Notes: a model not told the origin generated them from the letters alone. DNA of 64,000 nt from Gammaproteobacteria bacterium (GCA_050184115.1 JBFXAQ010000001.1:1002304-1066303); one strand, 5' to 3'. Counted from the stretch's first letter, positions 43,582-64,000 are shown. Numbers and translations are program-made.

Positions 43582-45252
43582 TCAGTTGGCCAGGACGCGT
43601 AGGACCCGGAAGCCGGTGTAGGCGTCGGCGGTGTCGGCGGCGAGCGCCGCGCGCGCGGCCGAACGGAGCGCACCGGCGTCGTCGGCGTAGGAGCCGCCGC
43701 GCACCACGCGCAGGGCGCCCTCGCCGCGGCGTACGCTGCCGTCGGCAGGCGCGCCGGCATGGTCGTCGAACCAACTGTCGGCGACCCATTCACGCACGTT
43801 GCCGGCCATGTGATAGAGACGAAAAGCGTTGCCGTCCAGGCTGCGGTCGTTCGCCGCGAGCGGGCGCCCGTTCGCCCCACCGTGGCCGAAACGGGCGTCG
43901 TCGGGTGCGAGCTGGTCGCGTCCGGAGGGATAGGCCGCCGTCGATCCCGCGCGCGCGGCGAACTCCCACTCCGCTTCGCTCGGCAGGCGATACTCCGCGC
44001 CGGTGAGTTCAGACAACCACGCGGCGTAGTCGCGGGCCAGGTACCAGTTGACGTTGACCGCCGGCAGCGCCGGTTCCGGCCAGGGTTGTACCGGGCAGTT
44101 GCGGCCGGTGTCCGCGCAGTAGCGCGCGAGTTCGGCCGCGCTGATCTCGAACATGCTGAGCGCGAAGGGGTCGCTGATGTCGACGGCATGACGCGGGGTT
44201 TCGTGTGCGCCTTCGCCGCCCATGTCGAACTGCCCGGCCGCGACGACCACGAGCGCCGGGCCACGGAAGGCATCGCCGACGACGTCGATACAGAACGGGA
44301 GGGCGGCGCCGACCAGGTCCCGGCTGCAATTGCTGCGCGCGGGTACCGACGACGGCGTGGTTGCCGGCGACGCATCCACGGGCGTTGGCGCGGCCAGTGC
44401 GCGCCGCGGTTCCAGCGGCAACGGACGGGCGGCCACCGCACCGGGCTCCGCGGGCGCCGGCAGGGCGGCGCCTTCGGGCGCGGCGCTCGGCACGTCGGTG
44501 TCGCGCGCCGTATCGTCGGCGGCAGGCGTCTCCAGCGGGTCGCCGTCCGGCTGCCGGCTGCGCGCTTCGTGCCATTCGCGTCGCGCGCGCTCGAGGCGGG
44601 CATCGTCGATGGCGAGACGGTCGGCGAAGTCGAGCAGGCGCTCCTGGGCATCGAGGGCGTCGCGTGGATCACCGAGATCCATCAACGCCGTTTCGCCCGC
44701 GATCTGCGCGAGGACGGCATCACCGAGACGGCGCAGCGCGCCGTGTTCGACCAGTTCGGCCCGCGCCGCAGCATCGAGGTCCTGCCACTCGGCGACGAAG
44801 CCGTTCAAGCTGTCCAGGTTCCACACGTTGACGGCGAGGAAACGTGCCACAGGGTCGGGTGCCGGGGCCGTCTCGTGCTGGGCAGCGGCGGGTGAAGCGG
44901 CCGGTGCGGGCGCGGCCGCCGGCCGCCACAGCCACCAGCCGATGCCGATGGCGGCGCAGAGCGCGACGATCACCACGGCGAGCAGCGGGCCGCGTCCGCC
45001 CGCGGCGGCGTTGGTCCCTAGATCGGCGGCAACCGCGGGGATGATTTCCTGGGTGGTGTCGCCCTCGTCGTCCTCGTAGGGAAACACCGTTGGTGATTCG
45101 GGCGCCGGCGCGGAGAAAGGCACGAGTTCACGCTCGCCGGCCACGACGGCGCCGATCAGCTCGCGCCGTTGCAGGCGATAGGCCTCGCGGTCGATGTCGC
45201 CGACCGCGTAGCCACGCGACAGGCCGCGCAACGTGTCCTTGCTCTGCGCCAC
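43582..45252 (-). CDS. Single-pass membrane protein with C-terminal FGE-sulfatase/SUMF1-like domain (556 aa)
   Basis: TM LLAVVIVALCAAIGIGWWLW; GPALVVVAAGQFDMG, YRLPSEAEWEFAARAG, YHMAGNVREWVAD, VVRGGSY, GFRV. No FGE catalytic Cys motif. Confidence 0.88.
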   Translation of the reverse strand: MAQSKDTLRGLSRGYAVGDIDREAYRLQRRELIGAVVAGERELVPFSAPAPESPTVFPYEDDEGDTTQEIIPAVAADLGTNAAAGGRGPLLAVVIVALCAAIGIGWWLWRPAAAPAPAASPAAAQHETAPAPDPVARFLAVNVWNLDSLNGFVAEWQDLDAAARAELVEHGALRRLGDAVLAQIAGETALMDLGDPRDALDAQERLLDFADRLAIDDARLERARREWHEARSRQPDGDPLETPAADDTARDTDVPSAAPEGAALPAPAEPGAVAARPLPLEPRRALAAPTPVDASPATTPSSVPARSNCSRDLVGAALPFCIDVVGDAFRGPALVVVAAGQFDMGGEGAHETPRHAVDISDPFALSMFEISAAELARYCADTGRNCPVQPWPEPALPAVNVNWYLARDYAAWLSELTGAEYRLPSEAEWEFAARAGSTAAYPSGRDQLAPDDARFGHGGANGRPLAANDRSLDGNAFRLYHMAGNVREWVADSWFDDHAGAPADGSVRRGEGALRVVRGGSYADDAGALRSAARAALAADTADAYTGFRVLRVLAN

Positions 45253-45303: not shown

Positions 45304-48300
45304 TCAGCTGAGGTCCATGACGACGCGGAAGCCGGTTGCCTCGTCGGCCTGGCCGTCGTGGTTCTTCTCCAGCGTGATGTCGCACTTGCTGAAGGTGTCC
45401 TCGAAGGCGCCGCCGCGGGCGACGACGCCGCTGCCGGAGGTCACCCATTCCTGGACGTTACCGACGTAGTTGTACAGGCCCCAGCCGTTCGGCTTGCCGG
45501 TGTTGACGCCCATCGTGCCCTGGCCCTTGAGCAATTGGCCGTTCTGTTCGAGGCGGCAGTTGTAGTCCTTCTTCGGCTGATCGCCGGCGGCCTCGGCAGC
45601 GTAGGTCCACTCGGCGATGGTGGGCAGGCGGAACTTCTCTCCGGTGCGTTCGGACAGCCACGCGACGTAGGCCTGGGCTTCCTCGACCGAAATGCCGGTG
45701 ATCGGCTGGCGTGCTTCCACGCCGCGGCGCGGTTCACAGCTCTTGCTCAGCACGCAGTAGCGGTTGTAATCGCCCACCGCGACCTCGAATTTGCCGATGG
45801 CGAAGGCCTTGTCGACGCCACTGCCCTTGGGCACGACCACCATGGTCGGGCCGCGCTGGTTGCCCGACACGAAGTAGAAACAGGTGCCCTTCTGGCGTTT
45901 GCCGTGCCCGGCGAGACGGGCCTCGCACGGGTCGGTAGCCGGCAGCGGCGGCGCGATCGGCCGGTCTCCGGTGTCGGTTGCGGTCCCGCCGGTGTCCGTC
46001 GGATGGAGCTTGGCCACCACGCGCGCGTGCTCCTTGCGGAACGTGCCGCTGTCCGCCCATACCGACAGGGCCTTCTCCATCGTCGCCAGAGCATCCTCGT
46101 AGGCGCCGGCCGTGTATTGCTTCTTGTAGGTGTCGAACAATTCCTTGGCGTCGCCGACGCGGGCGTTGAAAGTCGCCTTGAGGCGCACGATGTCCGGATG
46201 CTCGGCCTCGGACTCGTTGGCCTTCTTGAGCAGCTCGCGCGCCTCGCCGAGCATGGCCTTGTCCATGGCCGCGTTGACCTCGGCGGCGTAGCGCGATGGC
46301 GGCACTTCGAGCTTGACCAGTTCGATGGCGGCGATGAGCTGGTTGCCGGCGAACAACTCCTTCGCCTGCTCGATGACCGAGTTGGCGCCGGTGCCGGCGG
46401 ATTCCTTGAGGCCTTCGAGGCGCTGGCCCAGCGCTTGTGCCCACTGGCCCTCCGAGCGGCTGAAGACGCCCGGGTCGAGGACCTGGACTTCGGAGATCTT
46501 CGACATCACCTCGCCGAGGTCGAAGTTGCCGCCGCGCGCGAAGATCTTCTCGAGATCCTGCTTGTTGCCGTCGACGGTGTAGTCGCGCACGGCGTTCTTG
46601 CAGTCGAGCCGCTCCGGCTGCAGCTCGGCGCAGGCCTTGGCGAAACGCAGCGCGGCCGCGAAATCGGTCGCGGCGGCGCGTTGCGTGGCGAGCTTGTAGT
46701 AGGCCGCCGCGAGCATGCGTGGCGCCTCCTTCTCGACGAACGCGTCCTGCGTGTCACCCAACTCGACGCGCAGCGCGTCGAGGGTCTTCTGCGCGGCGAC
46801 GACGTCGTTGGCGCGGGCCTGGGTCTGGAAGGTCTCCTTGAGGCCGTCGACACGCGCGAGGCGCGCCTGTTCGGCCTGCTCACGCTCGAACGCCTCGGTC
46901 GCCGCGGCCAGGGCCGCGCGTTCGTCGGCGAGACCGGGCGCATCGGGTGCGAAGCGTTCGGCGTCGGCGAGCAGGTTGGCGCCCTCCGCGAAACGCTGTT
47001 CGCCGCGCATGGCGGTCGCGCGTTCGATGTAGGTCTGTGCGATGCGCCGACCGTTTTCGGCCAGCCACGGGTCGCCCGGCTCACCGAGCGCGATGATGTC
47101 CTCCATCTTCTGGCGCACGCTGGCACGCCAGTCGCGGTCGGCGGTCGGTTCCTGCAGCAGCTGCTCGATGTCGCGCTTGGCGTCGGCGACGAGCTTCTTC
47201 TCCTGTTCGACGACGAACTGCCGGCGGGAGTCCTCGAGCGACGCCAGGCTTGTCGCGAGCTCGTTCGCCCCGGGCAGGTCGATCAGGGCACGACGGGTGA
47301 CGTCCACGGCATCGTCCCACCGGTCGGCTTCGCCCATGCGGCGCGCGCCGTCGTTGATCGCCTGCGCCAGTGTGCCGCGCAACTCGTCGATGGCGGCGCT
47401 GCCCGGATTGAGCGCGGCGAGTTCTTCGAGGCCGGCCAGGGCCTGGTCGTAGGCGGCCGGTTCGAGTCCGAGGGTGCCGATCTGGGCGCGCACTTCGGCG
47501 AGGCGTTGGTCGAAGCGCGACTGGCGCTGCGCCCGCGCCGCCGTCCGCGCGGCGTCGTCGAGACCGCGCTCGGCCGCGACCCGGGCCTGTTCGGCGCCGA
47601 CGAGCGCGGTGACGTTGTCGCGCGGGGCGACCGCGACAGCCGCCGCCAAGGCCTGGTCGGCGGCGTCATAGCGGCCATCGTCGCGCGCCCCGTAGGCGCG
47701 TTGCAGCAGGGCCATCGCGACCTGGTCGCGCGCGTTCTGGGTGCGCACGTTGCGCGGCGCGATGGCGGCCAGGCGCTGGAGTGCCTGTTCGGCCTGCGGC
47801 GTGACTTCGCCACTGGCCACCGCCGCGGTGACGGCATTGCGCTCCGTGCTCACGGTGCCGTCGAACTGGACGCCGAGCGCGGCGGCGCGGGCGTTGAGTT
47901 CGTGCAGGCCGAGGCCACGCAGCAGGGACTTGAAGTCGCCACCCATCAGGGCGCTCTTGCCCCAGGCCTTGCTGCTCTCGAGTGCGGCGAGGTCCTTGAC
48001 CGCGAGCGGTTGCACCGTCGTGCGCAACTTCTCCAGCAACTCGTTGCCGGGATCGGCGCGGGCGAGATCGGCGATGGCACCGGCGACATCGACGTAGGCC
48101 GCGAGGCCTTCGTCCGAGTCCTCGGCCTGCTGGATGGCGGCAATCGCGGTCAGGATGCGCGCACGGGTCTGCGCGCGGTCGCGGGCGCCCGCAATCTTGT
48201 CGGTGAGGTTGGCGAGGTTGGCACTGTCGGGGATCAGGCCTAGACCGATCTGGCCGAGTTCGTCGGCGTAATCGTAGTCCTCGTTCTCGAGCGCGGTGTT

Positions 48301-50256
48301 GATGGCCGTGGCGTAGGCGCCGGGAATGCGGCGGTCGGTCAGCATGGCGTGCTTCGGATCGACCTGGCGCACCACGTTCATCGCGTCGAAGATGTCGTCT
48401 TCGCCGTCGACCGCGAGCAGGGCGCCATTCTCCAACGCCGTGTTGAACTTCTCGAACTGCTCGTTGAACAGCCGGTTCTCCGACTCCTGGATGTCGCGCT
48501 CGAGATCGGCGAGCACGCTCGAGTCCTTGTACACCGCCGACAATGCCTTGGCCTGTTCGACCGTCCGGCGTGCGCCGGTGAAGTCGAACTGTCCCTTGTC
48601 GACGGCGAACTGGGCGCGCGCGCGCCCTTCGAAGTAGCCGATGATCTCGTCCTTGGCCGCGGTGAAGATGCGGTCGCGCTTGTCCGCCGCGATGTCGTCG
48701 GTGGTGAGGTTGCCCAGCATGGTCTCGATCTGCGCCGCATCGCCCGATTTCGCCATCGCGATGCGGGCTTCGATGTCGCGGTTCTCGAGGTAGTTCTTGG
48801 CCGGGAAGAAACCCGCGATGATGACCAGGGCGGTGATCGCCGGCACCATGACGAAGGGGTTCTTCCACGGCGAGGTCGCGCCCTCGAATTCCTCGAGGAA
48901 CTGCCCGGTGCTCTGGCTGCGTCCTGCGCGCTCGAATGCCAGGCCGCGCTGCAGGCCCCGCCACTGCTTGCGCGTGAGGCCCTTGACCGGTTCTGGCGAG
49001 AGGCCGGCGTCACGCGCCTTGTTGGCCGGGATCTTGTTGAACGGGTGCTTGCCCGTGAGCAGTTCGTAGGCGACGCAGGCCAGCGCGTAGATGTCGTCGC
49101 GCGGATCGGGTTCCTCGCCCTCCAGCATCTCGAGACTGGCATAGGCCGGGGTCAGCGCGCCGAGTTTGCCTGGATCGAAGATGGTCGTCTCGCCCTCGGC
49201 CGCGCCCGGCGCCTTGACCGCGCGTGCGATGCCGAAATCGAGCACCTTCATCTGACCTTCCTTGGTGATGAAGCAGTTGCCGGGCTTGAAGTCCGAATGG
49301 ACGATGCTGCGGTCGTGGGCGTAGACGAGCGCGTTGCCAAGGCCCTGGACCATCGGGAACGCTTCGGCGAAGGGCAGCCCGCCCTTGGGCTTGACGACCT
49401 TCTTGATGAAGTCGTTCAGGGGCTCACCGTCGAGCACTTCCATGACGAGGAAAGCGAGGCCGTCCTCGGTCTGGTCGAAGTCATAGACGGTCGCGATGTT
49501 GGGGTGGGCGAGCTTCTGCTGGCGGCTCGCTTCGCGCTGCAGGGCGATGAAGGAATCGGGATGCTGCTTGAAATCCTCGTTGAGGACTTTCAGTGCGACT
49601 TCCGGTTTCTTGTCCTTGGCCCGGACCTTGATGAGATCCCTGCCGAGGTAGACCGCGCCCATGCCGCCCTGGCCGAGCACCTTGGTCAGTTCGAAACGGC
49701 CGCGCAGCACGCCGCCCGGTCCGAGGCGCGTAGTTGCCGCACCGGGCTCGGGTTTTGCCCAGTCGGTGCCGGTCTGGCCGGTATCGGTGCCACCGCTCGG
49801 CCACGACGAGCCGGTCTGGGTGCCGCTGTCCGAGCCGAGGTCGAAATCGATGCCGGTGGTGTGGCCGGACATCGGCGTCGCGGCAGCGGTGCCGTCGACG
49901 ATCTCGGTGGCGTCGTCGCCGGGCGGGGCGGTGCGTTCGACCCGCGTTGCGTCGTAGTTGTTGCCGGAGGTGATGTCGAGGATGCCGGTGTCGTCGCCGT
50001 CGCCCGCGTACTGCGTGCGTTCGTCGTCCTGGCCGCCGAGCGGCGCGGCTTCCACGTGACGCGCGACGCAGGCCCGCAAGCGCGCGTAGGTTTCGGTGTC
50101 GATGACGTCCTCGGTGACCGCCTGCTTGAGCTGGTCCATGATGGCGACCGCGGCCTGTGGCTTCTTGCGCAGCAGCTTGTCGATGTTCCCGGCGACCGAA
50201 TCGAACTCGATTTCGCGGCGCGACAGGCGCTCCAGTGTGGTCTTGAAATCAGCCAT
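45304..50256 (-). CDS. Membrane Ser/Thr (Hanks-type) protein kinase with long extracytoplasmic helical region and C-terminal FGE/SUMF1-like domain (1650 aa)
   Basis: LGQGGMGAVY, VALKVL, HSDFKPGN, KVLDFGIAR, DDIYALAC; one TM (FVMVPAITALVIIAGFF, about 48800-48860); C-terminal FRLPTIAEW, YVGNVQEWV, RGGAF, GFRV. Confidence 0.92.
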   Translation of the reverse strand: MADFKTTLERLSRREIEFDSVAGNIDKLLRKKPQAAVAIMDQLKQAVTEDVIDTETYARLRACVARHVEAAPLGGQDDERTQYAGDGDDTGILDITSGNNYDATRVERTAPPGDDATEIVDGTAAATPMSGHTTGIDFDLGSDSGTQTGSSWPSGGTDTGQTGTDWAKPEPGAATTRLGPGGVLRGRFELTKVLGQGGMGAVYLGRDLIKVRAKDKKPEVALKVLNEDFKQHPDSFIALQREASRQQKLAHPNIATVYDFDQTEDGLAFLVMEVLDGEPLNDFIKKVVKPKGGLPFAEAFPMVQGLGNALVYAHDRSIVHSDFKPGNCFITKEGQMKVLDFGIARAVKAPGAAEGETTIFDPGKLGALTPAYASLEMLEGEEPDPRDDIYALACVAYELLTGKHPFNKIPANKARDAGLSPEPVKGLTRKQWRGLQRGLAFERAGRSQSTGQFLEEFEGATSPWKNPFVMVPAITALVIIAGFFPAKNYLENRDIEARIAMAKSGDAAQIETMLGNLTTDDIAADKRDRIFTAAKDEIIGYFEGRARAQFAVDKGQFDFTGARRTVEQAKALSAVYKDSSVLADLERDIQESENRLFNEQFEKFNTALENGALLAVDGEDDIFDAMNVVRQVDPKHAMLTDRRIPGAYATAINTALENEDYDYADELGQIGLGLIPDSANLANLTDKIAGARDRAQTRARILTAIAAIQQAEDSDEGLAAYVDVAGAIADLARADPGNELLEKLRTTVQPLAVKDLAALESSKAWGKSALMGGDFKSLLRGLGLHELNARAAALGVQFDGTVSTERNAVTAAVASGEVTPQAEQALQRLAAIAPRNVRTQNARDQVAMALLQRAYGARDDGRYDAADQALAAAVAVAPRDNVTALVGAEQARVAAERGLDDAARTAARAQRQSRFDQRLAEVRAQIGTLGLEPAAYDQALAGLEELAALNPGSAAIDELRGTLAQAINDGARRMGEADRWDDAVDVTRRALIDLPGANELATSLASLEDSRRQFVVEQEKKLVADAKRDIEQLLQEPTADRDWRASVRQKMEDIIALGEPGDPWLAENGRRIAQTYIERATAMRGEQRFAEGANLLADAERFAPDAPGLADERAALAAATEAFEREQAEQARLARVDGLKETFQTQARANDVVAAQKTLDALRVELGDTQDAFVEKEAPRMLAAAYYKLATQRAAATDFAAALRFAKACAELQPERLDCKNAVRDYTVDGNKQDLEKIFARGGNFDLGEVMSKISEVQVLDPGVFSRSEGQWAQALGQRLEGLKESAGTGANSVIEQAKELFAGNQLIAAIELVKLEVPPSRYAAEVNAAMDKAMLGEARELLKKANESEAEHPDIVRLKATFNARVGDAKELFDTYKKQYTAGAYEDALATMEKALSVWADSGTFRKEHARVVAKLHPTDTGGTATDTGDRPIAPPLPATDPCEARLAGHGKRQKGTCFYFVSGNQRGPTMVVVPKGSGVDKAFAIGKFEVAVGDYNRYCVLSKSCEPRRGVEARQPITGISVEEAQAYVAWLSERTGEKFRLPTIAEWTYAAEAAGDQPKKDYNCRLEQNGQLLKGQGTMGVNTGKPNGWGLYNYVGNVQEWVTSGSGVVARGGAFEDTFSKCDITLEKNHDGQADEATGFRVVMDLS

Positions 50257-50364: not shown

Positions 50365-51093
50365 TCATGCCGCGGCGACCTCCACGACGCAGACCGTCAC
50401 ATTGTCGATGGCGCCCCGTTCGAGGGTCAGGTCGACCAGCGCACGCGCCGCTTCGGCCGGGGTGCCAGAGGCGAGCAGGCGCGCGATCTCGGGGTCCTTG
50501 ACGTGCTTGTCGAGACCGTCCGAACACAGCAGGAAACGGTCGCCGCCGGCCAGCTCGTACATGTCCATTTCCATTGCCAGCGAGTCGGTGACGCCGACCG
50601 CGCGCGTCACCATGTTGCCCGACGGGTGTCCCTCCGCCTCGCTGCGATCGATCAACCCCTTCTCGATGTAGGCCTCGATCTGCGTGTGGTCGGTGGTCAG
50701 CTGGTTGAACTCGCCGTCCCGCAGGCGATAGAGGCGGCTGTCGCCGGCCCACATCGTCACGGCATGGCGCCCGCGCATGAGCAGGATCACGACGGTGCTG
50801 CCACTGGTCTGGTTGTGCGCGTTGGCGACCTCGAACAGCCGCGCATTGACGTGCATGACGGCGTCTTCGACCTGGTCGACCAGCGGGGCCAGATCGTCCC
50901 CCAGGGTCAGCTTGCCGAGCGAATTGACGATGAGCTGGCTGGCGAGGTCGCCCGCCGAGTGGCCGCCCATGCCGTCGGCGACCACCCACAGGCCGTCGCC
51001 GCAGCGCTCCAGGCCGGAGTCCTCGTTCAGCTTGCGGACCTTGCCGACGTCGGAAATCAATGCCGACGTCCAGCTGAAGGGCTTGTCGCTCAT
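50365..51093 (-). CDS. PP2C-family Ser/Thr phosphatase (Stp1/PppA-like)
   Basis: DVGKVRKLNED, VADGMGGH, WAGDSRLY, LCSDGL, DNVT. ATG at 51093. Confidence 0.93.
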   Translation of the reverse strand: MSDKPFSWTSALISDVGKVRKLNEDSGLERCGDGLWVVADGMGGHSAGDLASQLIVNSLGKLTLGDDLAPLVDQVEDAVMHVNARLFEVANAHNQTSGSTVVILLMRGRHAVTMWAGDSRLYRLRDGEFNQLTTDHTQIEAYIEKGLIDRSEAEGHPSGNMVTRAVGVTDSLAMEMDMYELAGGDRFLLCSDGLDKHVKDPEIARLLASGTPAEAARALVDLTLERGAIDNVTVCVVEVAAA

Positions 51094-51187: not shown

Positions 51188-52087
51188 TCACCCGTCCGTC
51201 TTGAAATGCACGATTTCCTGCGGGTTCTCCGCGAACGAACGGCCGAGGCTGATCTTGCCGCTGCCGGTGAGGGGCATCTCCTCACGGCGCAGGAAGGCCT
51301 CGCTGCCATCGCAGAAGACATACGTGCCGTTGGTGCTCTGATCGATGATGAAGAACTTGCCCCGGCGGTGTTCGACGCGCACGTGCTGGCGCGAGGCGAG
51401 GGCTTCGGCCACGGCGATGTCGGCGGTCTTGCTGCGCCCCAGCACGACCTGGCTGCGTTCGGCGTCGACGGTAACGCGGTCATCGTGGTAGCGCAGGTCG
51501 AGCTGCGCGCGGTTGATCGGTTCGGGGATGACCCCGGTCGACATGCGCGTGACGTCTTCCTGCTGCCACAGCACTTCGAAGATGTCCATCGTCTCTTTCT
51601 TGCCCTTGACGGGCGCCCGGTCGATGAAGCGCGAGCTGGCCTTGAGGATCGGCGGCAGCTCGTCGATGGTCGACTGGGTGGTGATGATCTGGCCGGCCTT
51701 GGCCATCGAGGCCATGCGCGCGGCGACGTTGACCGCATCGCCGAAGACGTCACCCGCCTCCAGGATGGCCGGACCGTGATGGAGGCCGATACGGATGGCG
51801 AGCGAGATCTGACCGGCCGAGGGGCTTTCGACCACCTCGTCCTCCAGCATCTCGTGCATCTCGCAGGCGGCCGAGACCGCGCTCTCGGCGGTCGGGAAGG
51901 TGCACATGAGCTCGTCGCCGATGGTCTTGATGACCGAGCCGCCGTGGCGCTTGGTGACGTCCGTCAGCACCTGCAGGCAACTCGCCACCTGGGCCCGCGC
52001 CGGCCCATCGCCCAGGACCTCGTACAGGCGCGTACTGCCGCTGATGTCCGCGAACACGATGGTCAGGTGGGTCGTTTTGGGGGCCAT
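51188..52087 (-). CDS. Class III adenylate cyclase fused to a C-terminal FHA domain
   Basis: VFADISGST, IKTIGDELM, RIGLHHG, GDVFGDAVNVAARM: metal Asp pair, ATP-specifying Lys/Asp and Asn/Arg all present. FHA motifs LGRS, SRQH, STNGTYV. Confidence 0.92.
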   Translation of the reverse strand: MAPKTTHLTIVFADISGSTRLYEVLGDGPARAQVASCLQVLTDVTKRHGGSVIKTIGDELMCTFPTAESAVSAACEMHEMLEDEVVESPSAGQISLAIRIGLHHGPAILEAGDVFGDAVNVAARMASMAKAGQIITTQSTIDELPPILKASSRFIDRAPVKGKKETMDIFEVLWQQEDVTRMSTGVIPEPINRAQLDLRYHDDRVTVDAERSQVVLGRSKTADIAVAEALASRQHVRVEHRRGKFFIIDQSTNGTYVFCDGSEAFLRREEMPLTGSGKISLGRSFAENPQEIVHFKTDG

Positions 52088-55670: not shown

Positions 55671-55714
55671 TGTGAAGTGATTCACGGACCCGCCAACTAC
55701 CTGATAACTAAACT
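55671..55714 (+). promoter_or_regulatory. CRP-family binding site plus -10 element (class II CRP-type promoter) upstream of tpsA
   Basis: TGTGA-AGTGAT-TCACG (55671-55686) matches TGTGA-N6-TCACA at 9 of 10 positions. TAAACT at 55709-55714 puts the site centre at about -42. GGAGG ribosome-binding site at 55761-55765. Confidence 0.7.
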
Positions 55715-55776: not shown

Positions 55777-58700
55777 ATGAGCAGCCGTCATTTCGAGCCG
55801 AACGCGGCAGGGACGAATGGGCCCGCCAGTTCACTGAACCCGCTGTCACGCGCAGTCCGTCTCGCCCTTGTGCCGGGCGTGGTCCTGGGCCTCGGACCGC
55901 AAGCGGTCGTCGCCGGGCCGACCGGTGGCCAGGTGCGCGCCGGCCAGGCGGCCATCACCCAGAGCGGGCCGGTCACCACCATCTCCCAGCAGTCCGCGAG
56001 GGCTGCACTCGACTGGCAGAGCTTCAACGTCGCCAAGCACGAGACCGTCCAGTTCCAGCAACCCAGCGCACGCGCCGCCACCCTCAACCGCATCTTCGAC
56101 CAGAACCCGAGCGAGATCTTCGGCCAGGTCAAGGCCAACGGCCGCGTCGTGTTGATGAATCCCAATGGGGTGTTCTTCAAGCCCGGCGCGCGGGTCAACG
56201 TCGGCAGCCTGGTGGCCGGCGCCATGCAGGTCGGCATCGACGACTTCATGCGCGGCAGCTACAGCCTGGAGGCGTTGAAGAACGCCGGCGGGCGGGTCGT
56301 CAACCAGGGCACCATCGAAGCCACCGACGGCGACGTCGCCCTGGTCGGCACCAGCGTTGCCAACGAGGGCGTCATCGTCGCCACCGCCGGGCGCGTGCAG
56401 CTCGCCGCCGGTGAGAAGGTCACGGTCGACTTCGACGGGGACGGCTTGCTGCGTTTCACCGTCGACGAGGCGGTGCTCGAAAATGCCAAGGCGATTGACG
56501 ACCAGGTTGCCAACACCGGGCAGATCGTCGCCGAGGGTGGCGACGTGCTCATCACCGCCAGCGCCGCCGACGGCGTGTTCAAGAACGCCATCAACAACAG
56601 CGGTGTCATCCGCGCCGGGCGGGTGGAGAACCGCGGTGGCAAGGTCATGCTGGTCGGCATGGGGCCGGGGGCGTCGGTGCTCAACACCGGGCAGATCGAT
56701 GCTTCCGCGGCCGACGCCATGAGCAGTGGCGGCGCGGTGCGAGTGAGCGCGGCGAACATCTCCAATGTCGGCGACATGCGTGCCGACGCGGTTGGTGGCG
56801 AAGGCGGCTCCGTGCACCTCCTGTCGACGAATACCACGCTCAACAGCGGCACGATTTCGGCCACCAGCGCGAGCGGTCACGGTGGCGAGGCACGGGTCCT
56901 CGGCGACAAGGTCGGCGTGGTCGGCGAGGCGGTGGTCGACGTCAGTGGCGCCACCGGCGGCGGCGAAGCGCTGATCGGCGGTGACTACCAGGGCAGCAAT
57001 CCGGACATCGCCAACGCACGGGTGACCGTCGTCGGCGCACAGGCCCGCATCGACGCCAGCGCCACAGGCGACGGCGACGGCGGCAAGGTCATCGTGTGGG
57101 CGGATGGCACCACGCGTTATGCAGGCACGATCGAGGCGCGCGGCGGCGCCGACGGCGGCGATGGTGGGTTCGCCGAGGTATCGGGCAAGAATCACCTGGA
57201 TTTCGAGGGTGACGCCGATCTCTCCGCGCCGCAAGGCGCGACTGGCCGCCTGCTGCTCGATCCGAAGGATATCCTCGTCGCGGATGTCGACCCGGGTCCG
57301 GCCGACAACACGATCGTCGACGCCACGGACCTCGCGGACTTCGGCGATCAATTCACCGATGTGCCGGACGAGAGCAGCTTCATTTCGACAGCGAACCTCG
57401 TCACCCTGCTCGACAGCGCCGATGTCATTCTGAAGGCGAACAACGACATCACCATCGACGACGCCGTCGACGCATCGGGCAATGGCAACGACCATGGTCT
57501 CGACCTCGCGGCCGGCCGCAGCATCGCCGTCAATGCCGATGTCACGCTGCGCGGCGGATTCAGCGCCACCGCCAATTCGGACGACGCCGCGGTCGTCACC
57601 GCCCAGCGAGACGCCGGCGCCGGCGCCTTCACCATGGCCGATGGCGTGACCATCGATACGACCGCCGGAGCCGCGCCCGGTAATATCGACATCACGGTCG
57701 CCGCCGGTGCCGGTGGCGGGCAGACATCCGGCGACATCACCCTCGCCAACCTCGATGCCGGTACCGCCACGGTCACCATTGCGCAGGATGGCAAGACCGA
57801 CGGCAGCGACATCGTTCGCACGGCCACGTCACAGATCACCGCAGATACGCTCGCTCTCAGCGTCAGCGATGCGCTCAACGCTTCGGGCGCCATCGGCGCC
57901 ACGGGTGTCGGCAACGCCATCGCGACTGACGTCGCCACGCTCACCGCATCGACCGTGCAGGGCGGAATCTACGTCACCGAGGCGAATGACCTGGCGGTCG
58001 GCGCCGCCGGCGTGACGACGGGCGGTACCGCGGCGGGCGAAATCGTGTTGACCGCGGGCGGTACGCTCACCCTCGGCGGCGACATCGATTCCACGGACGC
58101 GCCGATCACGCTGACCGCGGGCAATCTCGTGAACGCCGCGAATGCCATCGATGCTGGTACGAACACGGTCAAGCTCGTCGCCAACAGTGGCAACGCGATG
58201 AGCATCAACGGCGCCAGCGCGTTCGACGTCTCGACGGCCGAGGTCGCGGCCATCACGGCCGGCACGTTGCACTTCCAGACGCTGGGCGCGACGGACGACA
58301 TCTCGATCGAGAACACGAATTTCGGCGTCAGAAACGTGAAGCTCGAGAGCGCGCGGGACATTCTCGACGAAACGCCTGGCGACGACACCACGGACGCGAC
58401 CCAGGTTACGACCACGGGCACCCTGACGCTCGATGCCGGCCGCAATATCGGCAGCGGTACGGATGGCCTGGCCGACCTCGACATCGCCGGGGCTACCGCC
58501 GTCACCATCCTCGCCGGCGGCAGTGTCGATCTGAACACCTCCACGGCGTTCAACAGCTTCTCGGGAACGTTCAGCCCGGTGGCAGATGCGGTCGACGTGA
58601 ATATCACCGGTAGTACGATTATCGATATCGACGAGACCGGCAATCAGCTGCAGATCAACAGCATCAACGATGCCGCGCTCACCGTCCAAATCGCATCGTT

Positions 58701-61700
58701 GGACAGCGGTATCGTGCTGAACAATGCCGCCACGGACGCCGTCGTCGCCGCGGGAGTCACGCTGATCGCAGGTAACGGCGCGATCGTCGATACCGCCGAC
58801 ACGACCAACGGCGTCGCCATCTTGACCGATGGGCCGGTGCTGCTCAGCGGGACGTCAATCGGTGTCAACGACACGGATCAGCTCGATCTCTCAGCACCCA
58901 CCGGCCCGGTGCTCTTGCAAACCTCGACCTCCGGCGACCAGTTCATCAGCAGCGGCAACGGCCTGACGACAACCGGAGCGGGTGTCTCGGGTGGCGCTAC
59001 CGGTAATGTCAGCCTGACGACCACGGCAGGTGACATCACGCTTACTAATGGCGTCAACGTTGCGGTCAAGGGTGCAACGGTCACGCTGGACTCCGCGGGG
59101 GCGATCGCCGATTCAGACAGCGCGTTCGCTGCGATCGAGACCGACGGACAGATACTGCTCAAGGCAGGCGGCAACGTCGGTGCGAACGGTGGGAACCCCC
59201 TGAACATCGCGTCGACCAACCCCGGCACAACGACGGCCCTGCTGGACGTCGACAACGCCGGCAGCGGCGACGTCTTCGTCGCGAGCAGTGGGGCTTTGAA
59301 CCTGGTCGACGGCGATGCGGATACCGTGGCGCTGGCGACCGGCGGTGGCGCCATCAGCGCGAGCAGTCCCCTGACAATCAGCAACACGGTCAATCTGACT
59401 GCGGGGACGACCTTCACGGCCGGCAACAGCGGCACTGCGGGTGACGATCTCACCATCAACGCTGCAGTTACGCTCGATAACGATGTCGATGGCGAACTTC
59501 TCACGTTCGTCGCCGGCGAGAACATCGTCTTCGGCGCGACGGGTTCGATCGATACCACGCTCGGCGCGGCCAGGCATGCGGTCACGTTGACGGCCGACAA
59601 CGAGGGTGCGAAGACCGGAACCATCGGCGAATCGGTTGCCGACGCGCATACCCTGGTCACGACCGGTGCATTGACCATGACTGCGGGGAGCATCGGCGCA
59701 GCAGGTGCGAACCCCGCCATCGACATCGACGCCACCAGTCTCGCCGCCTCGGCCACCGGCGGCGGGATTTTCGTCATCGAAACTGACGCCGGCGGTGACG
59801 GGCTGGACATCGCCGGTACCGGCCTCGCTACCGCGGGCGGTGATATCGAACTGACCGTGCAGGGTGGTGGACTTACCGACTCGGCGGGCATCGAGACTTT
59901 CAACGCGGGTAGCGACGGCGGCGACGTCACGCTGAACGTCATCGGTGTAATCGATCTCAGCGAGACGATCGATGCCCGTGGCGCGCCGAGCATCGACGTC
60001 GATGCGTCCGCCGGTGGCAATGTCTCGGTGACTGGTTCGTTGACCGTCACCTTGGGGCAGATTTTTACCGATGGCGGTACCGCGATCGATATCACGGGTG
60101 ATACCAACGCATCGGCGGGTGGTAATGCCGGCAACGTGACCATCGTTGCGGCGAGCGACCTCGTGACCGGCACGATCAGCGCCGTTGGCGGTAACGCGGC
60201 CGCCGCGGCAGGCGACCTGGCGGACGGGGCGGTGGGTGGGGCCGGCGGCAACGTCAGCCTGACCGCGACCGATGGCAGCATCGTGGTCGCCGGCATCAAT
60301 GCCTCGGCGGGTGCCAGTGCGAGCGCCACCGGCGCCGCGGCCGGTGCCAACGCTGGTACGGTCACCGTGCTGGTGGACAACGCGGATGCCGACCGCGACA
60401 TCACCCTGAACGGCGCCGTCAATGCCGTTGGCGGAACGGCTGTGCGCGCCGCCACCGGCGGTACGGGTGGCAACGTCGTCTTGCGTGTCGAGGATGACGA
60501 GGCCAATGGCAGCGGTTCGGTCGCCATTGTCTCGGTCAACGCTGCCGGTGGTGCGGCCACTACCGCGGCCGGCACCGGCGGCGCGGCCGGCGACGTCGAG
60601 CTGACCTCGCTCGGCGGCGCGAACGCGATCACATTGAACGGTCTTGTTTCCGCGCTCGGCGGCTCGAATACCGCGGCCCGGGGCGCCGACGGCACCGTCA
60701 CGCTGACGGCCGATGGCATCGTCGATGTCGGGGCGGACGGCGCCACGAAAGTCGCGGCTGGCACACTCGTTCTCAGCGCCGCCCAGTTCGGGACGGCAAC
60801 GGGCAATTCCGCTGCGCACATCGACGTCACCAACCTCGATCTCACGACCCAGACAGCGGATTCGTTCATTACCGAAGTCGACACCGTCACGCTCGACGGC
60901 CTCAACCTGCAGAGCAATTTCCAAAGCGACGGCGGCAATCTCACGCTGACCGTGCAGACGGGCAATCTGACCAGCGATACGAACGTGGAAACCCAGGGTG
61001 CAGTCGACGGCGGCGATCTCGCGATCACCGTTCAGGCCGGCAATATCGATCTGGCCGCGCGTACGCTCTTGACCGCAGGTACAGCGGCCGTAGGCGATGC
61101 CAACGGGGGTAACGCCGGTTCGATCAACCTCGTCGCCAGTGGTTCCGTGGCCGTCGATGAACTCGACGCCAGCGGCGGTGATGGCCTCGATGGGGCCAAC
61201 GACGGCACGGCGCGGGCCGGCGGCAGCGGCAACAGCGTCACGGTCAATGCCGGCACCACGATCGCGGTGACGACCGTGAATACTTTCGGCGGCGGCGCCG
61301 ACGTAACCCCGGGAGACGGCGTCGGGGCAGCCGGCGGCGCCGGTGGTAGCGCCACTCTCAGTGCGACAAACGGGGCGATCACCGTAACCTCGGTGACCAC
61401 CTCGGCCGGCGCCAGTGCGGCCGACGGCGTCGACATAGACGGTAGCGACGCTGGCGATATCGTCCTCTCGATCACGGGCGCGAACGCCGGCGGGCGCAAT
61501 ATCAGCGTCGGTGGTGCGCTCACCGCGGTCGGCGGCGCGGCCGCCGGTGGCGGCGGCGAAACCGGTGGCGACGGCGGCAGCGTGTCCGTCAGCGTCGCGG
61601 GCGCCGGTGGTGGCGCCGGCTCGGTCAGTGTCGCCAACGTCACCACCGACGGTGGTGCGGGCGCGACTGCCGGCACTGCCGCGCCCATCGCGCTTACGGC

Positions 61701-64000
61701 GCTGGGGGCCACCGGTAACGTCAACCTGGCCAGCAACCTGTCGGCACTCGGCGCCAGCAGCCCGCTCGGCACGATCACCCTGACCGCCGGCACCGGCGGC
61801 GGTGCCATCAACGTCGGCGGGTCGGTGGCCAGTATCGAGACCAGCGATGCGAACGTCGATTTCGTCGGGCCGGTCTTCTTGAACAACACCGGTACGCTGA
61901 CCGTGAATACGGGAACGGGCGCCGGCGATATCACGTTCTCCGATACGCTGACCGGAGGATCCGCCAACCGCAACCTGACGCTCACTGCTGGCACGGGCAA
62001 TATCCATTTCACAGGCCAGCTGACCGGCGGCGCGAACAAGATTCGCGCGCTGACCATCTCGTCGGCACGCAATGTAACGGCCGATGCTGACATCAATGTG
62101 CGCAGCTTCACGCAGACCACGGGTACCGGGACCACGTTGCTGACCGGGGCACTCGTCGCCCAGGCCCGAGACGGCGCGGCACCGACCGGAGTGTCGATCA
62201 CCAACACCGCGATCGACGTGCAGAACGGCATCGACACTGCCGGCGCAGCCAGCGACACCCTCAACAACCGTACGGGCGGCAATATCACCCTCAATGCAAC
62301 GGCGACCACACTGACCATCGCCGGCGCGGTCAACTCGGCCGGTGCGGCCGCGGTGACGAGTGGCGCCGGAGGTGCAGGGGGCACGGTCAACCTGACGGCG
62401 AACACCTCCTTCGCCAGCAGCGGGACCATCACGACTACCGGCGGTGGTGGGCGTACGGCGACAGGAGGCATCGGCGGCAACGTCACGATCAACGCCAACG
62501 GCCTCACCGTGGGCGCCGGGGTGACCAGCAGTGGCGGCAACAACCTGAGCGGCAATGGCGACGGCGGCGCCGCAGGCACCATCACGCTCAATGGCGGCAC
62601 CGGCGCAGTCAATCTCAACGCGGCCCTGGTCGCGGCGGGCGGCAATTCCTCGACCACCGGCGGTACCGACGATGGTAACGGCGGCACTGTTTCGATTACC
62701 GCTGGTACCTCTATCGTCGTCGACACCACGGCGGCTGCGATCACGACCACGGGAGGGAGCGGCAACGACGCGGCGGACGGCGGGGCCGTGAATTTCGTCA
62801 GCCCGGTGGTACTCGCCGGCGACGGTACCTTCACGATCAACACTTCGGGCGACGCGGCCAGCGCGGTGGGTTCAGTCGCGTTCCAGTCCACGCTCGACGG
62901 CGATGGTGCCGGCGCGGCCGAAGCATTGACGATTACGGCCGGCGGCGGCGATGTTCAGTTCCTGAGGAACGTCGGCAATGGAAATGTGCTCGGCGCAGTA
63001 CTGATCAACAGCGCACGGAATGTGACCTTCGGCGATCCGGTCAACCCGGGCGCGGAGACATTCAAGGTCGGGTCACTCACACAGCTGGCCGGAACCGGCA
63101 CCACGCGGTTCGACGGTCGCACTGGGTTCACGTCGACTGATAACAATGCCCCGACGCTGGGTTTGTTCAACGTGGTGATCGGCAATGGACTGAGCATTAC
63201 GGCAGATAGCATAGAGATCAACGACAGCATCCGTGTCGATACCGGCGATATCGTGCTTGTTTCCGCGAACGACGTGGTTGTTTCGACTGCAGGGATGACG
63301 CCCGGTGGTGCTTCCAGCGTGCGTAATCGCGACGTCTACGCGGTCGACGGTAACATCACCACTGACGTGGCCAATGGCTCTGGCGACACGACTCTGCAAG
63401 ACTCCGGCACGGACCCGGTTAATCCAGATAATGGGTTGAATACACGTTTGGTCGCGGGAGGTTCGGGAGGAGCGATTTCCGCGGACAATGCCGATCTGGG
63501 GACGAATTTGAATGACGTGACTTGGCCGCATCTGGTCGGCGCTCTCGTCGAACTCCTCTACCACCAGACTCTCTATTTGGGTAGTGACACCGCTGGACTG
63601 GGTGGCGACGTATTCCCCGTAACGTTCCACCTTGACGACCAAGGGCTCCGCGACAGCATCAATGCGAATGGCCTGTCCGTGTTCCGCACCGATACCGGTG
63701 ACATCGTCCTCGACATGGCGAGCGATTTCGACCTGGATTTCGGCGGGACCGCAACCCTGCGGCTCATCGCGGACAACGGAAACATCCTCGACAACAGCGA
63801 TGACGTCGCGGTAACGGGCAGCGGCGACGGTATCGCGTTTCACGCCGGTTTCGACGGCACGTTGCTCGATCTGTTCGCGCCGAATGGAACGATAGGCCTT
63901 GCGACGGGAACGCTCGATCATCTGGCCGCTACCCTGAACAACACGACTCCGACCTTGACGGTCGACGCTACCGACATCGCGGTGTCCACTGCGAGTGCGG
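55777..64000 (+). CDS. Giant filamentous haemagglutinin-like TpsA exoprotein (>2740 aa, 3'-truncated at window edge); not in the ORF track
   Basis: ATG at 55777 after GGAGG. Hand translation gives a signal peptide, then GPTGGQV, LDWQSFNV, LNRI, NGRVVLMNPNGV (TPS domain), GGFAEVSGK...LLLDP (about 57170-57265) and Gly/Ala/Thr/Asn-rich beta-helix repeats. The same frame still reads as coding at 63601-63840, and no terminated ORF from this start is listed in the track. Confidence 0.93.
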   Translation, partial: MSSRHFEPNAAGTNGPASSLNPLSRAVRLALVPGVVLGLGPQAVVAGPTGGQVRAGQAAITQSGPVTTISQQSARAALDWQSFNVAKHETVQFQQPSARAATLNRIFDQNPSEIFGQVKANGRVVLMNPNGVFFKPGARVNVGSLVAGAMQVGIDDFMRGSYSLEALKNAGGRVVNQGTIEATDGDVALVGTSVANEGVIVATAGRVQLAAGEKVTVDFDGDGLLRFTVDEAVLENAKAIDDQVANTGQIVAEGGDVLITASAADGVFKNAINNSGVIRAGRVENRGGKVMLVGMGPGASVLNTGQIDASAADAMSSGGAVRVSAANISNVGDMRADAVGGEGGSVHLLSTNTTLNSGTISATSASGHGGEARVLGDKVGVVGEAVVDVSGATGGGEALIGGDYQGSNPDIANARVTVVGAQARIDASATGDGDGGKVIVWADGTTRYAGTIEARGGADGGDGGFAEVSGKNHLDFEGDADLSAPQGATGRLLLDPKDILVADVDPGPADNTIVDATDLADFGDQFTDVPDESSFISTANLVTLLDSADVILKANNDITIDDAVDASGNGNDHGLDLAAGRSIAVNADVTLRGGFSATANSDDAAVVTAQRDAGAGAFTMADGVTIDTTAGAAPGNIDITVAAGAGGGQTSGDITLANLDAGTATVTIAQDGKTDGSDIVRTATSQITADTLALSVSDALNASGAIGATGVGNAIATDVATLTASTVQGGIYVTEANDLAVGAAGVTTGGTAAGEIVLTAGGTLTLGGDIDSTDAPITLTAGNLVNAANAIDAGTNTVKLVANSGNAMSINGASAFDVSTAEVAAITAGTLHFQTLGATDDISIENTNFGVRNVKLESARDILDETPGDDTTDATQVTTTGTLTLDAGRNIGSGTDGLADLDIAGATAVTILAGGSVDLNTSTAFNSFSGTFSPVADAVDVNITGSTIIDIDETGNQLQINSINDAALTVQIASLDSGIVLNNAATDAVVAAGVTLIAGNGAIVDTADTTNGVAILTDGPVLLSGTSIGVNDTDQLDLSAPTGPVLLQTSTSGDQFISSGNGLTTTGAGVSGGATGNVSLTTTAGDITLTNGVNVAVKGATVTLDSAGAIADSDSAFAAIETDGQILLKAGGNVGANGGNPLNIASTNPGTTTALLDVDNAGSGDVFVASSGALNLVDGDADTVALATGGGAISASSPLTISNTVNLTAGTTFTAGNSGTAGDDLTINAAVTLDNDVDGELLTFVAGENIVFGATGSIDTTLGAARHAVTLTADNEGAKTGTIGESVADAHTLVTTGALTMTAGSIGAAGANPAIDIDATSLAASATGGGIFVIETDAGGDGLDIAGTGLATAGGDIELTVQGGGLTDSAGIETFNAGSDGGDVTLNVIGVIDLSETIDARGAPSIDVDASAGGNVSVTGSLTVTLGQIFTDGGTAIDITGDTNASAGGNAGNVTIVAASDLVTGTISAVGGNAAAAAGDLADGAVGGAGGNVSLTATDGSIVVAGINASAGASASATGAAAGANAGTVTVLVDNADADRDITLNGAVNAVGGTAVRAATGGTGGNVVLRVEDDEANGSGSVAIVSVNAAGGAATTAAGTGGAAGDVELTSLGGANAITLNGLVSALGGSNTAARGADGTVTLTADGIVDVGADGATKVAAGTLVLSAAQFGTATGNSAAHIDVTNLDLTTQTADSFITEVDTVTLDGLNLQSNFQSDGGNLTLTVQTGNLTSDTNVETQGAVDGGDLAITVQAGNIDLAARTLLTAGTAAVGDANGGNAGSINLVASGSVAVDELDASGGDGLDGANDGTARAGGSGNSVTVNAGTTIAVTTVNTFGGGADVTPGDGVGAAGGAGGSATLSATNGAITVTSVTTSAGASAADGVDIDGSDAGDIVLSITGANAGGRNISVGGALTAVGGAAAGGGGETGGDGGSVSVSVAGAGGGAGSVSVANVTTDGGAGATAGTAAPIALTALGATGNVNLASNLSALGASSPLGTITLTAGTGGGAINVGGSVASIETSDANVDFVGPVFLNNTGTLTVNTGTGAGDITFSDTLTGGSANRNLTLTAGTGNIHFTGQLTGGANKIRALTISSARNVTADADINVRSFTQTTGTGTTLLTGALVAQARDGAAPTGVSITNTAIDVQNGIDTAGAASDTLNNRTGGNITLNATATTLTIAGAVNSAGAAAVTSGAGGAGGTVNLTANTSFASSGTITTTGGGGRTATGGIGGNVTINANGLTVGAGVTSSGGNNLSGNGDGGAAGTITLNGGTGAVNLNAALVAAGGNSSTTGGTDDGNGGTVSITAGTSIVVDTTAAAITTTGGSGNDAADGGAVNFVSPVVLAGDGTFTINTSGDAASAVGSVAFQSTLDGDGAGAAEALTITAGGGDVQFLRNVGNGNVLGAVLINSARNVTFGDPVNPGAETFKVGSLTQLAGTGTTRFDGRTGFTSTDNNAPTLGLFNVVIGNGLSITADSIEINDSIRVDTGDIVLVSANDVVVSTAGMTPGGASSVRNRDVYAVDGNITTDVANGSGDTTLQDSGTDPVNPDNGLNTRLVAGGSGGAISADNADLGTNLNDVTWPHLVGALVELLYHQTLYLGSDTAGLGGDVFPVTFHLDDQGLRDSINANGLSVFRTDTGDIVLDMASDFDLDFGGTATLRLIADNGNILDNSDDVAVTGSGDGIAFHAGFDGTLLDLFAPNGTIGLATGTLDHLAATLNNTTPTLTVDATDIAVSTASA

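Follow-up and report, generated by a model that had tools for sequence, protein, structure and literature searches.

A 64-kb stretch of DNA from a gammaproteobacterial metagenome-assembled genome (MAG) of ~68% GC, henceforth referred to as the window, was placed on contig JBFWTC010000001.1 of assembly GCA_050248045.1 and contains a seven-gene cluster that we interpret, with moderate confidence, as one unit: a phosphothreonine-gated cyclic AMP (cAMP) switch on a two-partner secretion (TPS) system. The cluster consists of two gene runs that diverge across a 268-bp spacer (52088-52355). The leftward run encodes, in order, an adenylate cyclase with a C-terminal FHA domain (cyclase-FHA), a PP2C phosphatase, a membrane Ser/Thr kinase ending in an FGE-like domain (kinase-FGE) and a membrane FGE protein, referred to below as the partner protein. 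The rightward run encodes a parvulin-type peptidyl-prolyl isomerase (PPIase), the outer-membrane transporter TpsB and its secreted partner TpsA. Gene content was taken from Pfam and from independent gene calls on JBFWTC010000001.1, and the positions of all seven genes and their divergent layout agree with those given in an earlier note made from the sequence of the window. The interpretation builds on this parts list, on the topology and the intact catalytic and binding residues of the encoded proteins, on conserved synteny, on the co-occurrence of a CRP-type operator with the cyclase gene, and on homology to a control module of type VI secretion systems (T6SS).

Conservation of the neighbourhood was assessed in three seeded scans covering one genome per GTDB species, using as seeds the cyclase-FHA (80 loci), TpsB (109 relatives, 80 of them kept) and the kinase (80 loci, ranked by similarity to the kinase of loci L150 and L167). 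At cyclase identities of at least ~57%, nearly all loci showed tpsA, tpsB and the PPIase gene diverging from genes for the cyclase, PP2C, kinase-FGE and partner protein, followed by ubiG. Among 42 cyclase-seeded loci with informative flanks, the kinase and TpsB were found together in 17, the kinase only in 3, TpsB only in 0 and neither in 22. Where the flank was sufficient in the TpsB-seeded loci, the cyclase lay alongside in 66/69 and an FGE-domain kinase in 60/62. These loci extend over 36-71% GC, with cyclase identity down to 41% and TpsB identity to ~40%. The earlier note had proposed a search for co-occurrence of the cyclase-FHA, kinase-FGE and TpsB/TpsA genes across genomes, and this came out positive. 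It had also taken homologous operons lying mainly beside T6SS genes, or without TPS genes, as speaking against its proposal; such operons are T6SS-adjacent in a minority of cases, often with TPS genes as well. At least 66 species-level genomes carry the system, their sources being sediment, groundwater, activated sludge and symbionts, and these genes have not come together by chance. The same order is present in >60 independent assemblies, among them complete long-read chromosomes, which ruled out an assembly artefact or a chimeric MAG. In the window, ubiG lies on the same strand as the partner gene and starts 45 bp beyond it (spacer 43537-43581). It was seen 3' of the signalling operon in most related loci, also after cyclase-PP2C pairs lacking the kinase, and may be co-transcribed with the operon.

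A CRP box had been proposed ahead of tpsA, and the site was recovered with a single mismatch and found to be conserved across related loci with high significance. It is the only match at ≤1 mismatch in the window, where 0.85 are expected per 64 kb, and is not significant alone. Among boxes of this quality, 15 of the 27 found in the cyclase-seeded loci (1.18 Mb) lie in tpsB-tpsA spacers, as do 30 of the 47 found in the TpsB-seeded loci (1.27 Mb), where the density is 1.56/kb in the spacers and 0.013/kb elsewhere, a ~120-fold difference. Such a box is present in 29/72 tpsB-tpsA spacers compared with 0.4 expected from shuffles. With ≤2 mismatches allowed, it was found in 20/32 spacers of loci with cyclase and TPS genes, 0/11 with T6SS and TPS genes and 0/5 with TPS genes only. 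Comparing TPS loci with and without the cyclase (20/32 vs 0/16) gives a Fisher p of 2e-5, uncorrected for phylogeny. In Legionellales-labelled MAGs (L033:2270-2370; L153:5677-5777; L158), four tandem CRP-type boxes with 23-31 bp spacing were observed 5' of tpsA, in place of a single box.

The centre of the box in the window would lie near -41.5 or -42.5 of the predicted transcription start site (TSS), which corresponds to class II geometry. In low-GC relatives, an extended -10 element (TGnTAnnAn) is located exactly 18 nt after the box in 24/72 loci, and the TAAACT of the window is at the equivalent place. Because the operator is conserved and its spacing to the -10 element is fixed, tpsA is predicted to have its own conserved and dedicated promoter that depends on a CRP-family factor. 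The promoter proposed for the cyclase operon sits in a ~40-bp element (52183-52230; GAAGTTTATGGAACAAGTCTCTATACATCAACA; GAAGTTTATGGAACAAGT.CTAT.CATCAA) that is kept in L085, L086 and L091 with diverged flanks and that probably represents a sigma-70 promoter for this operon. Neither of the proposed promoters was picked up in a scan for consensus promoters and terminators, which also detected no terminator. The tpsB stop is immediately followed, at 55569-55601, by a GC-rich stem (GCGGGGUGCACGGUUGCUGGGCCGUGCACCCGC) that has 13 pairs, a single-base bulge and no U-tract. This stem is locally strong, the region as a whole folding no better than shuffles (z = -1.37), and it may insulate tpsA transcription from tpsB.

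The cyclase contains the catalytic residues of class III adenylate cyclases, with roles assigned from family knowledge: metal-binding D14 and D58, adenine-specifying K54 and D113, and transition-state N120 and R124. In the PDB it comes closest to class III cyclases such as Ma1120 and 3mr7, with which the K and D align. The FHA domain likewise contains the Gly-Arg, Ser-x-x-His and Asn-Gly motifs of phosphothreonine binding (G217-R218, S232-R233, H235 and N253-G254-T255). Across 16 homologues with 67-100% identity, every one of the residues listed for the two domains is invariant apart from R233, which ≥90% of the homologues share.

The kinase begins with a conserved helical domain (aa 1-75) and a Thr-rich linker (aa 76-188; nt 49693-50031), followed by the Pkinase domain (aa 189-413) with a non-RD catalytic loop, HSD. 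The N-terminus and kinase domain are cytoplasmic, and a single transmembrane (TM) segment (aa 465-487) leads to ~1,160 periplasmic residues. The periplasmic part includes ~990 aa that are mostly Ala/Glu-rich, and presumably helical, and ends in an FGE-like domain (aa 1481-1646). In the window, the linker carries the motifs ERTQY, DATRV and DATEI. Kinase orthologues carry between 1 and 8 acidic-Thr-x-hydrophobic motifs (DATEI, DSTVF, DATQV etc.) in their disordered linker, and at least one copy is present in 48/59 orthologues by a strict pattern. The pattern [DE]xT[QEV]-hydrophobic was counted 89 times in the kinase N-terminal regions (11.9 k aa) and 5 times in the remaining 78.8 k aa, an enrichment that is indicative only, the pattern having been set post hoc from the alignment. 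T6SS-linked and TPS-only kinases bear the same feature. The phosphatase matches NCBIfam Stp1_PP2C_phos at E=1.7e-59, under the equivalog cut-off, and adjoins the cyclase in nearly all related loci.

The partner protein has a cytoplasmic N-terminal helical motif, LRGLSRGYAVGDIDREAYRLQRRELI, with the Thr motifs PTVF and DTTQEI, followed by a TM segment (~aa 88-108) and, in the periplasm, by an FGE-like domain (aa 332-552). The closest PDB match of this domain is PvdO, 5hha, and it is 53% identical to the FGE domain of the T6SS-linked L167 partner. The earlier note had likened the separate FGE protein to TagR of Pseudomonas. The analogy can apply only to the window's own subclade, the only one in which the partner carries an FGE domain, and does not extend to most cyclase-type loci, where the partner is ~245 aa long and consists of the N-terminal module and TM segment only. 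Both FGE-like domains of the window lack the two Cys residues located after RGGS in catalytic FGEs (RGGSYADDAGALRSAARA and RGGAFEDTFSKCD). Because this pair is missing, PvdO, which is not an FGE, is the nearest match and TpsA is Cys-free, the domains are best read as serving binding rather than modification. A catalytic FGE acting on TpsA was rejected, given the absence of the catalytic Cys pair and of any Cys in TpsA.

Table 1. Genes and regulatory elements of the cluster, in window coordinates.
Feature	Position	Strand	Details
Membrane partner protein FGE2, single-pass	43582-45252	-	556 aa; Pfam FGE-sulfatase E=1.6e-39
Membrane Ser/Thr kinase-FGE, Hanks-type, bitopic	45304-50256	-	1650 aa; Pfam Pkinase E=9e-35, FGE-sulfatase E=6e-19
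PP2C Ser/Thr phosphatase	50365-51093	-	242 aa; Pfam PP2C, PP2C_2
Soluble class III adenylate cyclase with C-terminal FHA	51188-52087	-	299 aa; Pfam Guanylate_cyc aa 4-166, FHA aa 214-257
Predicted sigma-70 promoter of cyclase operon, TTGATG-17-TAAACT	52191-52219	-	read from sequence
Parvulin-type PPIase, membrane-anchored or exported	52356-53366	+	336 aa; Pfam Rotamase, Rotamase_2, Rotamase_3
TpsB outer-membrane transporter	53573-55549	+	658 aa; Pfam POTRA_2 E=1e-11, ShlB E=3e-26
TpsB RPGA(V/L/I)RPG repeats (aa 43-105)	53699-53722, 53774-53797, 53864-53887	+	sequence
CRP-type box TGTGAAGTGATTCACG	55671-55686		1 mismatch to TGTGA-N6-TCACA; 91 nt before tpsA ATG
Predicted tpsA -10 element TAAACT	55709-55714	+	read from sequence; predicted TSS ~55720
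tpsA, 5' part	55777-64000	+	2741 open codons; runs past window end

Homologues of the kinase module are also found at the end of T6SS gene clusters, in the position of PpkA/PppA/TagR, and often precede the same TpsB/TpsA subfamily. Two TpsB-seeded loci, L150 and L163, keep the kinase and lack the cyclase. In L150 and L167, a unidirectional series of genes encodes Fha (FHA + T6SS_FHA_C), a product with no Pfam match, TssK, TssL, TssM, TagF, PP2C, kinase-FGE, FGE protein, TpsB and TpsA. Clusters of fha-tssK-tssL-tssM-tagF leading into the PP2C, kinase-FGE, FGE protein, TpsB and TpsA genes were seen in L167:362-20918 (DRNU01000008.1), L168, L170, L171, L176, L180, L204 and L233. Over the 80 kinase-seeded loci, the context was cyclase and TPS in 37, cyclase only in 4 (three with too little upstream flank, and L235 with the PPIase and no TpsB match), T6SS and TPS in 13, T6SS only in 9, TPS only in 6 (mainly Steroidobacter), and none or a short contig in 11. 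T6SS core genes thus adjoin 22/80 kinase homologues. Cultured carriers of T6SS and TPS genes are Simiduia litorea KMM 9504, Parendozoicomonas callyspongiae and Endozoicomonas arenosclerae, and Pfam confirmed Fha and the series kinase-FGE, TpsB, TpsA in S. litorea (L236; NZ_AP031497.1:2545770-2566654). In the cultured strains (L236, L240 and L241), the T6SS genes were observed to be divergent from a short kinase-FGE gene (~850 aa), which is followed by those for TpsB and a giant TpsA.

In a kinase-domain tree, nearly all cyclase-linked kinases form one clade among diverse T6SS- and TPS-linked ones. The idea of the earlier note that T6SS parts have been re-wired at this locus is borne out by this tree and by the homologous PP2C, kinase-FGE and FGE genes that follow fha-tssK-tssL-tssM-tagF. 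Its view of the TPS pair as the output of cAMP needs amendment: in the 13 T6SS and TPS loci and the 6 TPS-only loci, the pair adjoins the kinase without cyclase or box. This arrangement implies that linkage of the kinase to TPS predates the cyclase link, and that the TPS pair may belong to the input side of the kinase as well as being an output. The simplest history would be an old kinase-TPS(-T6SS) unit in which the phosphothreonine reader was swapped once for the FHA-cyclase, with the CRP operator and the parvulin gained alongside.

The best-supported reading of the window is a pathway leading from phosphothreonine through the FHA-cyclase and cAMP-CRP to tpsA, of which we infer every step, its sign and its stimulus from the sequence. 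An envelope signal would be sensed by the periplasmic stalk of the kinase, which ends in the non-catalytic FGE domain, together with the partner protein; the stimulus is possibly the state of TpsB and TpsA themselves. The active kinase would autophosphorylate the acidic-Thr-x-hydrophobic motifs of its linker, and perhaps the tail of the partner as well. Docking of the FHA domain on these phosphothreonines may then concentrate or dimerise the soluble cyclase and alter cAMP synthesis. Class III cyclases act as dimers, and clustering is therefore a plausible route of activation. A rise in cAMP would be transmitted by a CRP-family regulator encoded elsewhere to the class II operator near -41.5 of the tpsA promoter, and PP2C presumably resets the phosphothreonine signal. 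TpsB and the parvulin would be transcribed separately, from the divergent region.

Several observations weigh against this reading. No box was found at <3 mismatches in 12/32 loci with cyclase and TPS genes, boxless loci usually retaining a TGTGA half-site at the orthologous position. A tblastn search with an E. coli CRP query found no CRP-family gene in the window or within 10 kb of the loci compared (2.6 Mb). The cyclase-FHA/PP2C pair is widespread without kinase or TPS genes and so does not serve TPS alone. Kinase and TPS genes stay linked where cyclase and box are absent, and cAMP control of tpsA is not the whole reason for the linkage. Within the clade, adjacency to ubiG is about as conserved as adjacency to the TPS genes, so that part of the synteny signal may reflect inheritance rather than selection. 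All cyclase-linked loci retrieved come from MAGs, counts across loci are not phylogenetically independent, the kinase tree is a midpoint-rooted neighbour-joining tree without support values, and the Thr motif carries the post hoc qualification given above.

The alternative that deserves most attention, though we hold it only tentatively, is compatible with the cAMP switch and places the TPS pair mainly on the input side. TpsB/TpsA would act with the FGE domains and the stalk as a trans-envelope sensor of contact or damage, by analogy with TagQ/TagR ahead of PpkA, the kinase would drive whichever phosphothreonine reader is present (T6SS Fha or FHA-cyclase), the cAMP output would be global, and the CRP box would provide feedback. 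In support of this, kinase-FGE genes adjoin the same TpsB/TpsA subfamily in the three contexts counted above (37 cyclase, 13 T6SS and 6 neither), TPS-associated kinases lie to either side of the split between cyclase and T6SS linkage in the kinase tree, and the T6SS-type order tagF-PP2C-kinase-FGE protein-TpsB-TpsA runs in one direction. The ~990-aa periplasmic stalk could span to the outer membrane, and TagR is an FGE-family periplasmic activator of PpkA that is anchored by an outer-membrane protein (PMC13584744). However, 9 T6SS-linked and 3 cyclase-linked kinase loci are without TPS genes, so the kinase can work alone; contact of the FGE domains with TpsB or TpsA would have to be assumed; and the dedicated, conserved CRP promoter of tpsA suits an output role at least equally well. 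An elaborated form of this idea, which we regard as somewhat doubtful, is that the TpsA filament and TpsB pore form a trans-envelope antenna for contact or damage, linked through FGE domains and stalk to a PpkA-like kinase. The antenna would ancestrally have triggered T6SS assembly via Fha, the gene arrangement for which persists in Simiduia, Endozoicomonas, Ectothiorhodospiraceae-like MAGs and others. In the lineage of the window, a single replacement of Fha by the FHA-cyclase would have converted this contact-triggered weapon switch into a contact-to-cAMP pathway with positive feedback by CRP on the antenna gene.

Three other explanations were weighed against the phosphothreonine-gated switch. 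It is unlikely that the cluster is inherited gene order with no dedicated circuit, in which tpsA would belong to a global CRP regulon for catabolite or starvation control, fed by another cyclase and unrelated to the phosphothreonine-cyclase operon. The cluster does lie in a housekeeping region in which ubiG adjacency is similarly kept, the cyclase-FHA/PP2C/ubiG group occurs without kinase and TPS genes (L021, L031, L047, L057 and L065), and the search for a local CRP gene in the window and the loci compared was negative. Against this stand the persistence of synteny over the GC and TpsB identity ranges given above, the joint gain and loss of kinase, partner, PPIase and TPS genes, and the absence of the box from all 16 TPS loci without cyclase, which generic catabolite control would not predict. 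Quite improbable is the proposal that the TGTGA-N6-TCACA box is bound by a cAMP-unresponsive CRP-family protein, for example a Clp-like one responding to cyclic di-GMP as in Xanthomonadales relatives, with the cyclase product acting on another receptor. Clp of Xanthomonas recognises the same TGTGA-N6-TCACA consensus, the annotation of several carriers is Steroidobacter or Steroidobacteraceae-like Gammaproteobacteria, and the negative search for CRP-family genes fits this proposal as well; yet the box co-occurs strictly with an adenine-specific cyclase, and it is precisely the Steroidobacter-type loci that have neither cyclase nor box. Post-translational gating, by which the kinase and PP2C would control TpsA secretion through a phosphorylated secretion component with cAMP incidental, is suggested by homology of the module to T6SS-linked PpkA/PppA-type modules. 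We consider it the least probable of these explanations: TpsB, TpsA and the parvulin are extracytoplasmic, as judged by their signal peptides or anchors, and offer no cytoplasmic kinase substrate, and the sole FHA reader at the locus is fused to the cyclase.

The TPS pair itself has both attributes of type Vb secretion, namely an Omp85-type TpsB and a TPS-domain TpsA encoded beside tpsB. In TpsB, a signal peptide and, N-terminally, three RPGA.RPG repeats precede the POTRA region. Relatives of TpsB were seen to carry one repeat copy (LPDxARPGAVRP), and the corresponding site reads TPGG(V/A)QP in the T6SS-linked and Steroidobacter TpsBs; the parvulin or the FGE domains might dock on these repeats. 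The PPIase, with a hydrophobic N-terminal segment (aa 1-27), is encoded in almost all cyclase-type loci and is absent from T6SS-type loci. It weakly matches EpsD-type PPIases of exosortase systems (E=1.7e-7) and is a candidate periplasmic chaperone for TpsA.

TpsA has a TPS domain at aa 48-296 (Pfam TPS E=8.5e-34, with a TIGR01901 match) that is closest among PDB matches to EtpA, HMW1 and HxuA. Beyond this domain, Pfam detected no recognisable domain and no Fil_haemagg, FHA-1 or FHA-2 repeats in a protein rich in Gly, Ala, Thr, Val and Asp. The earlier note had estimated >2740 aa for TpsA, and the actual size is at least ~4,960 aa. In public gene calls, a 3034-aa TpsA stops without a stop codon at a 10-N scaffold gap within a tandem repeat (L082:21307-21316). 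The gap is ~890 bp past the right end of the window, with ~100-aa repeats on both sides. The next, 1926-aa gene call is the continuation of TpsA, giving one open reading frame (ORF) of at least ~4,960 codons from which an unspecified number of repeats is missing. TpsA orthologues exceed 3,200 aa wherever a 10-kb flank is present. No homologues were found for a 213-aa repeat piece downstream of the gap, the homologues retrieved for the TpsA N-terminus were all fragments of ≤867 aa, and the window part of tpsA contains no DNA tandem repeats. Complete TpsA orthologues in L122 (1800 aa), L125 (1028 aa) and L163 (2100 aa) contain TPS only, plus DUF5649 in L163; tpsA is followed by housekeeping genes in L122 and by genes without a Pfam match in L125. 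A contact-dependent inhibition toxin system (CdiBAI) was rejected for the three complete orthologues, which show no VENN, toxin or immunity signature; the C-terminus of the window's own TpsA, where a toxin domain would be expected, lies outside the window and beyond the scaffold gap. An adhesin role for TpsA is the default reading, not a finding.

Outside the conserved cluster, distant cyclase-FHA genes are solitary or accompanied by PP2C, often beside ubiG. Among 150 ORFs surveyed with Pfam near the distant kinase-less homologues, none belonged to a T6SS family and PP2C was the only recurrent partner; a T6SS association of these genes was rejected. In Marinospirillum celere DSM 18438 (L046:47-4922) and in L044, a cyclase-PP2C-kinase-FGE operon with no TPS genes in ~4.9 kb of upstream flank is preceded by a co-directional ORF of >1,400 aa with a bactofilin domain. 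A perfect CRP box at L046:4562, just 5' of the cyclase gene, suggests autoregulation. In L053:4710-8639, a lone cyclase-FHA gene adjoins a gene for a 1309-aa protein with DUF5649 repeats, which are also present in the Steroidobacter TpsA (L163:11834-18136). The DUF5649 case hints that cyclase-FHA genes neighbour large repeat proteins in further arrangements too.

Among described systems, the locus is related by evolution to the threonine phosphorylation pathway of the Pseudomonas aeruginosa H1-T6SS (TagQRST-PpkA-PppA-Fha1), and it lacks two defining features of that pathway, a TagH-type Fha and tss genes. A bitopic Hanks kinase with a periplasmic sensor, a PP2C, an FHA reader of phosphothreonine and a periplasmic FGE-family protein are common to both. 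In the window, the membrane Hanks kinase and PP2C occur together, and the FGE protein at 43582-45252 is likened to TagR by family, not by direct sequence; TagR is listed as a COG1262 (FGE family) protein (PMC13584744). The locus differs in that the FHA domain is fused to an adenylate cyclase and is not of the TagH/Fha1 type with T6SS_FHA_C (such an Fha being present in L167 and L236), the kinase bears its own FGE domain, and the predicted output is transcriptional, via cAMP, rather than apparatus assembly. PpkA, by comparison, carries a von Willebrand-type domain. No equivalents of TagQ, TagS or TagT were found at the locus. The absence of tss genes from the window, already remarked by the earlier note, was confirmed by Pfam and gene calls over the rest of the 64 kb, where the remaining ORFs are housekeeping genes.

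Compared with TPS adhesins such as Bordetella FhaB/FhaC with the parvulin Par27, EtpBAC of enterotoxigenic E. coli and Haemophilus HMW1, the locus shares an Omp85-type TpsB with POTRA, a TPS-domain TpsA, a large repetitive passenger and an adjacent parvulin. In contrast to these, the passenger has no Pfam family and no pretoxin or toxin domains, TpsA reaches at least ~5,000 aa, the order is PPIase-tpsB-tpsA with a separate CRP-type tpsA promoter, and a Hanks kinase operon is coupled to the pair. We know of no described TPS system with a Hanks kinase operon.

The proposed circuit has a functional likeness to cAMP-Vfr surface sensing in Pseudomonas aeruginosa, where Pil-Chp, CyaB, cAMP and Vfr act in sequence: in both schemes, a stimulus at the envelope or surface leads a class III cyclase to make cAMP, which acts through a CRP-family factor on surface genes with positive feedback. 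Here, the input would be a Hanks kinase/PP2C/FHA relay instead of a chemosensory histidine kinase, and the cyclase is soluble and FHA-fused. Acidic-Thr-x-hydrophobic phospho-sites read by FHA domains are shared with the actinobacterial PknB/PknG-GarA/OdhI systems, in which the FHA-ligand site of GarA is ETTSVF. The actinobacterial FHA readers regulate metabolic enzymes, and none is known to be cyclase-fused or secretion-linked. An architecture of Ser/Thr kinase with FGE (DUF323) has been catalogued in Chlamydia (PMC1262709). A literature search with little coverage of subscription journals found no description of the kinase/PP2C/FHA-cyclase operon, of its TPS link, or of TPS genes on PpkA-type modules, in line with the earlier note, whose reader knew of no described system with this architecture.

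The remainder of the window includes ubiG, gph, sdhCDAB, dsbB, the malic enzyme gene, ffh, radA, alr, dnaB, rpsF/rpsR/rplI, rnr and lptFG. A tRNA was the sole match in an Rfam scan. At a distance of ~25 kb from the cluster (23460-27705, minus strand), a protein with a weak PEP-CTERM sorting-domain match and a 940-aa TPR protein are encoded.

If the reading of the cluster as a phosphothreonine-gated cAMP switch is true, it would be the first known case in which a bacterial Hanks kinase and its PP2C govern a second messenger by way of an adenylate cyclase fused to FHA, the first in which type Vb secretion is tied to threonine phosphorylation, and the first in which a T6SS control module is documented as re-used for a different output. 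The T6SS-linked form is present in three cultured strains, which makes the kinase-TPS link directly testable. The reading, if true, would also offer a candidate answer to what serves as the input of PpkA-like kinases in the many T6SS clusters without TagQRST.

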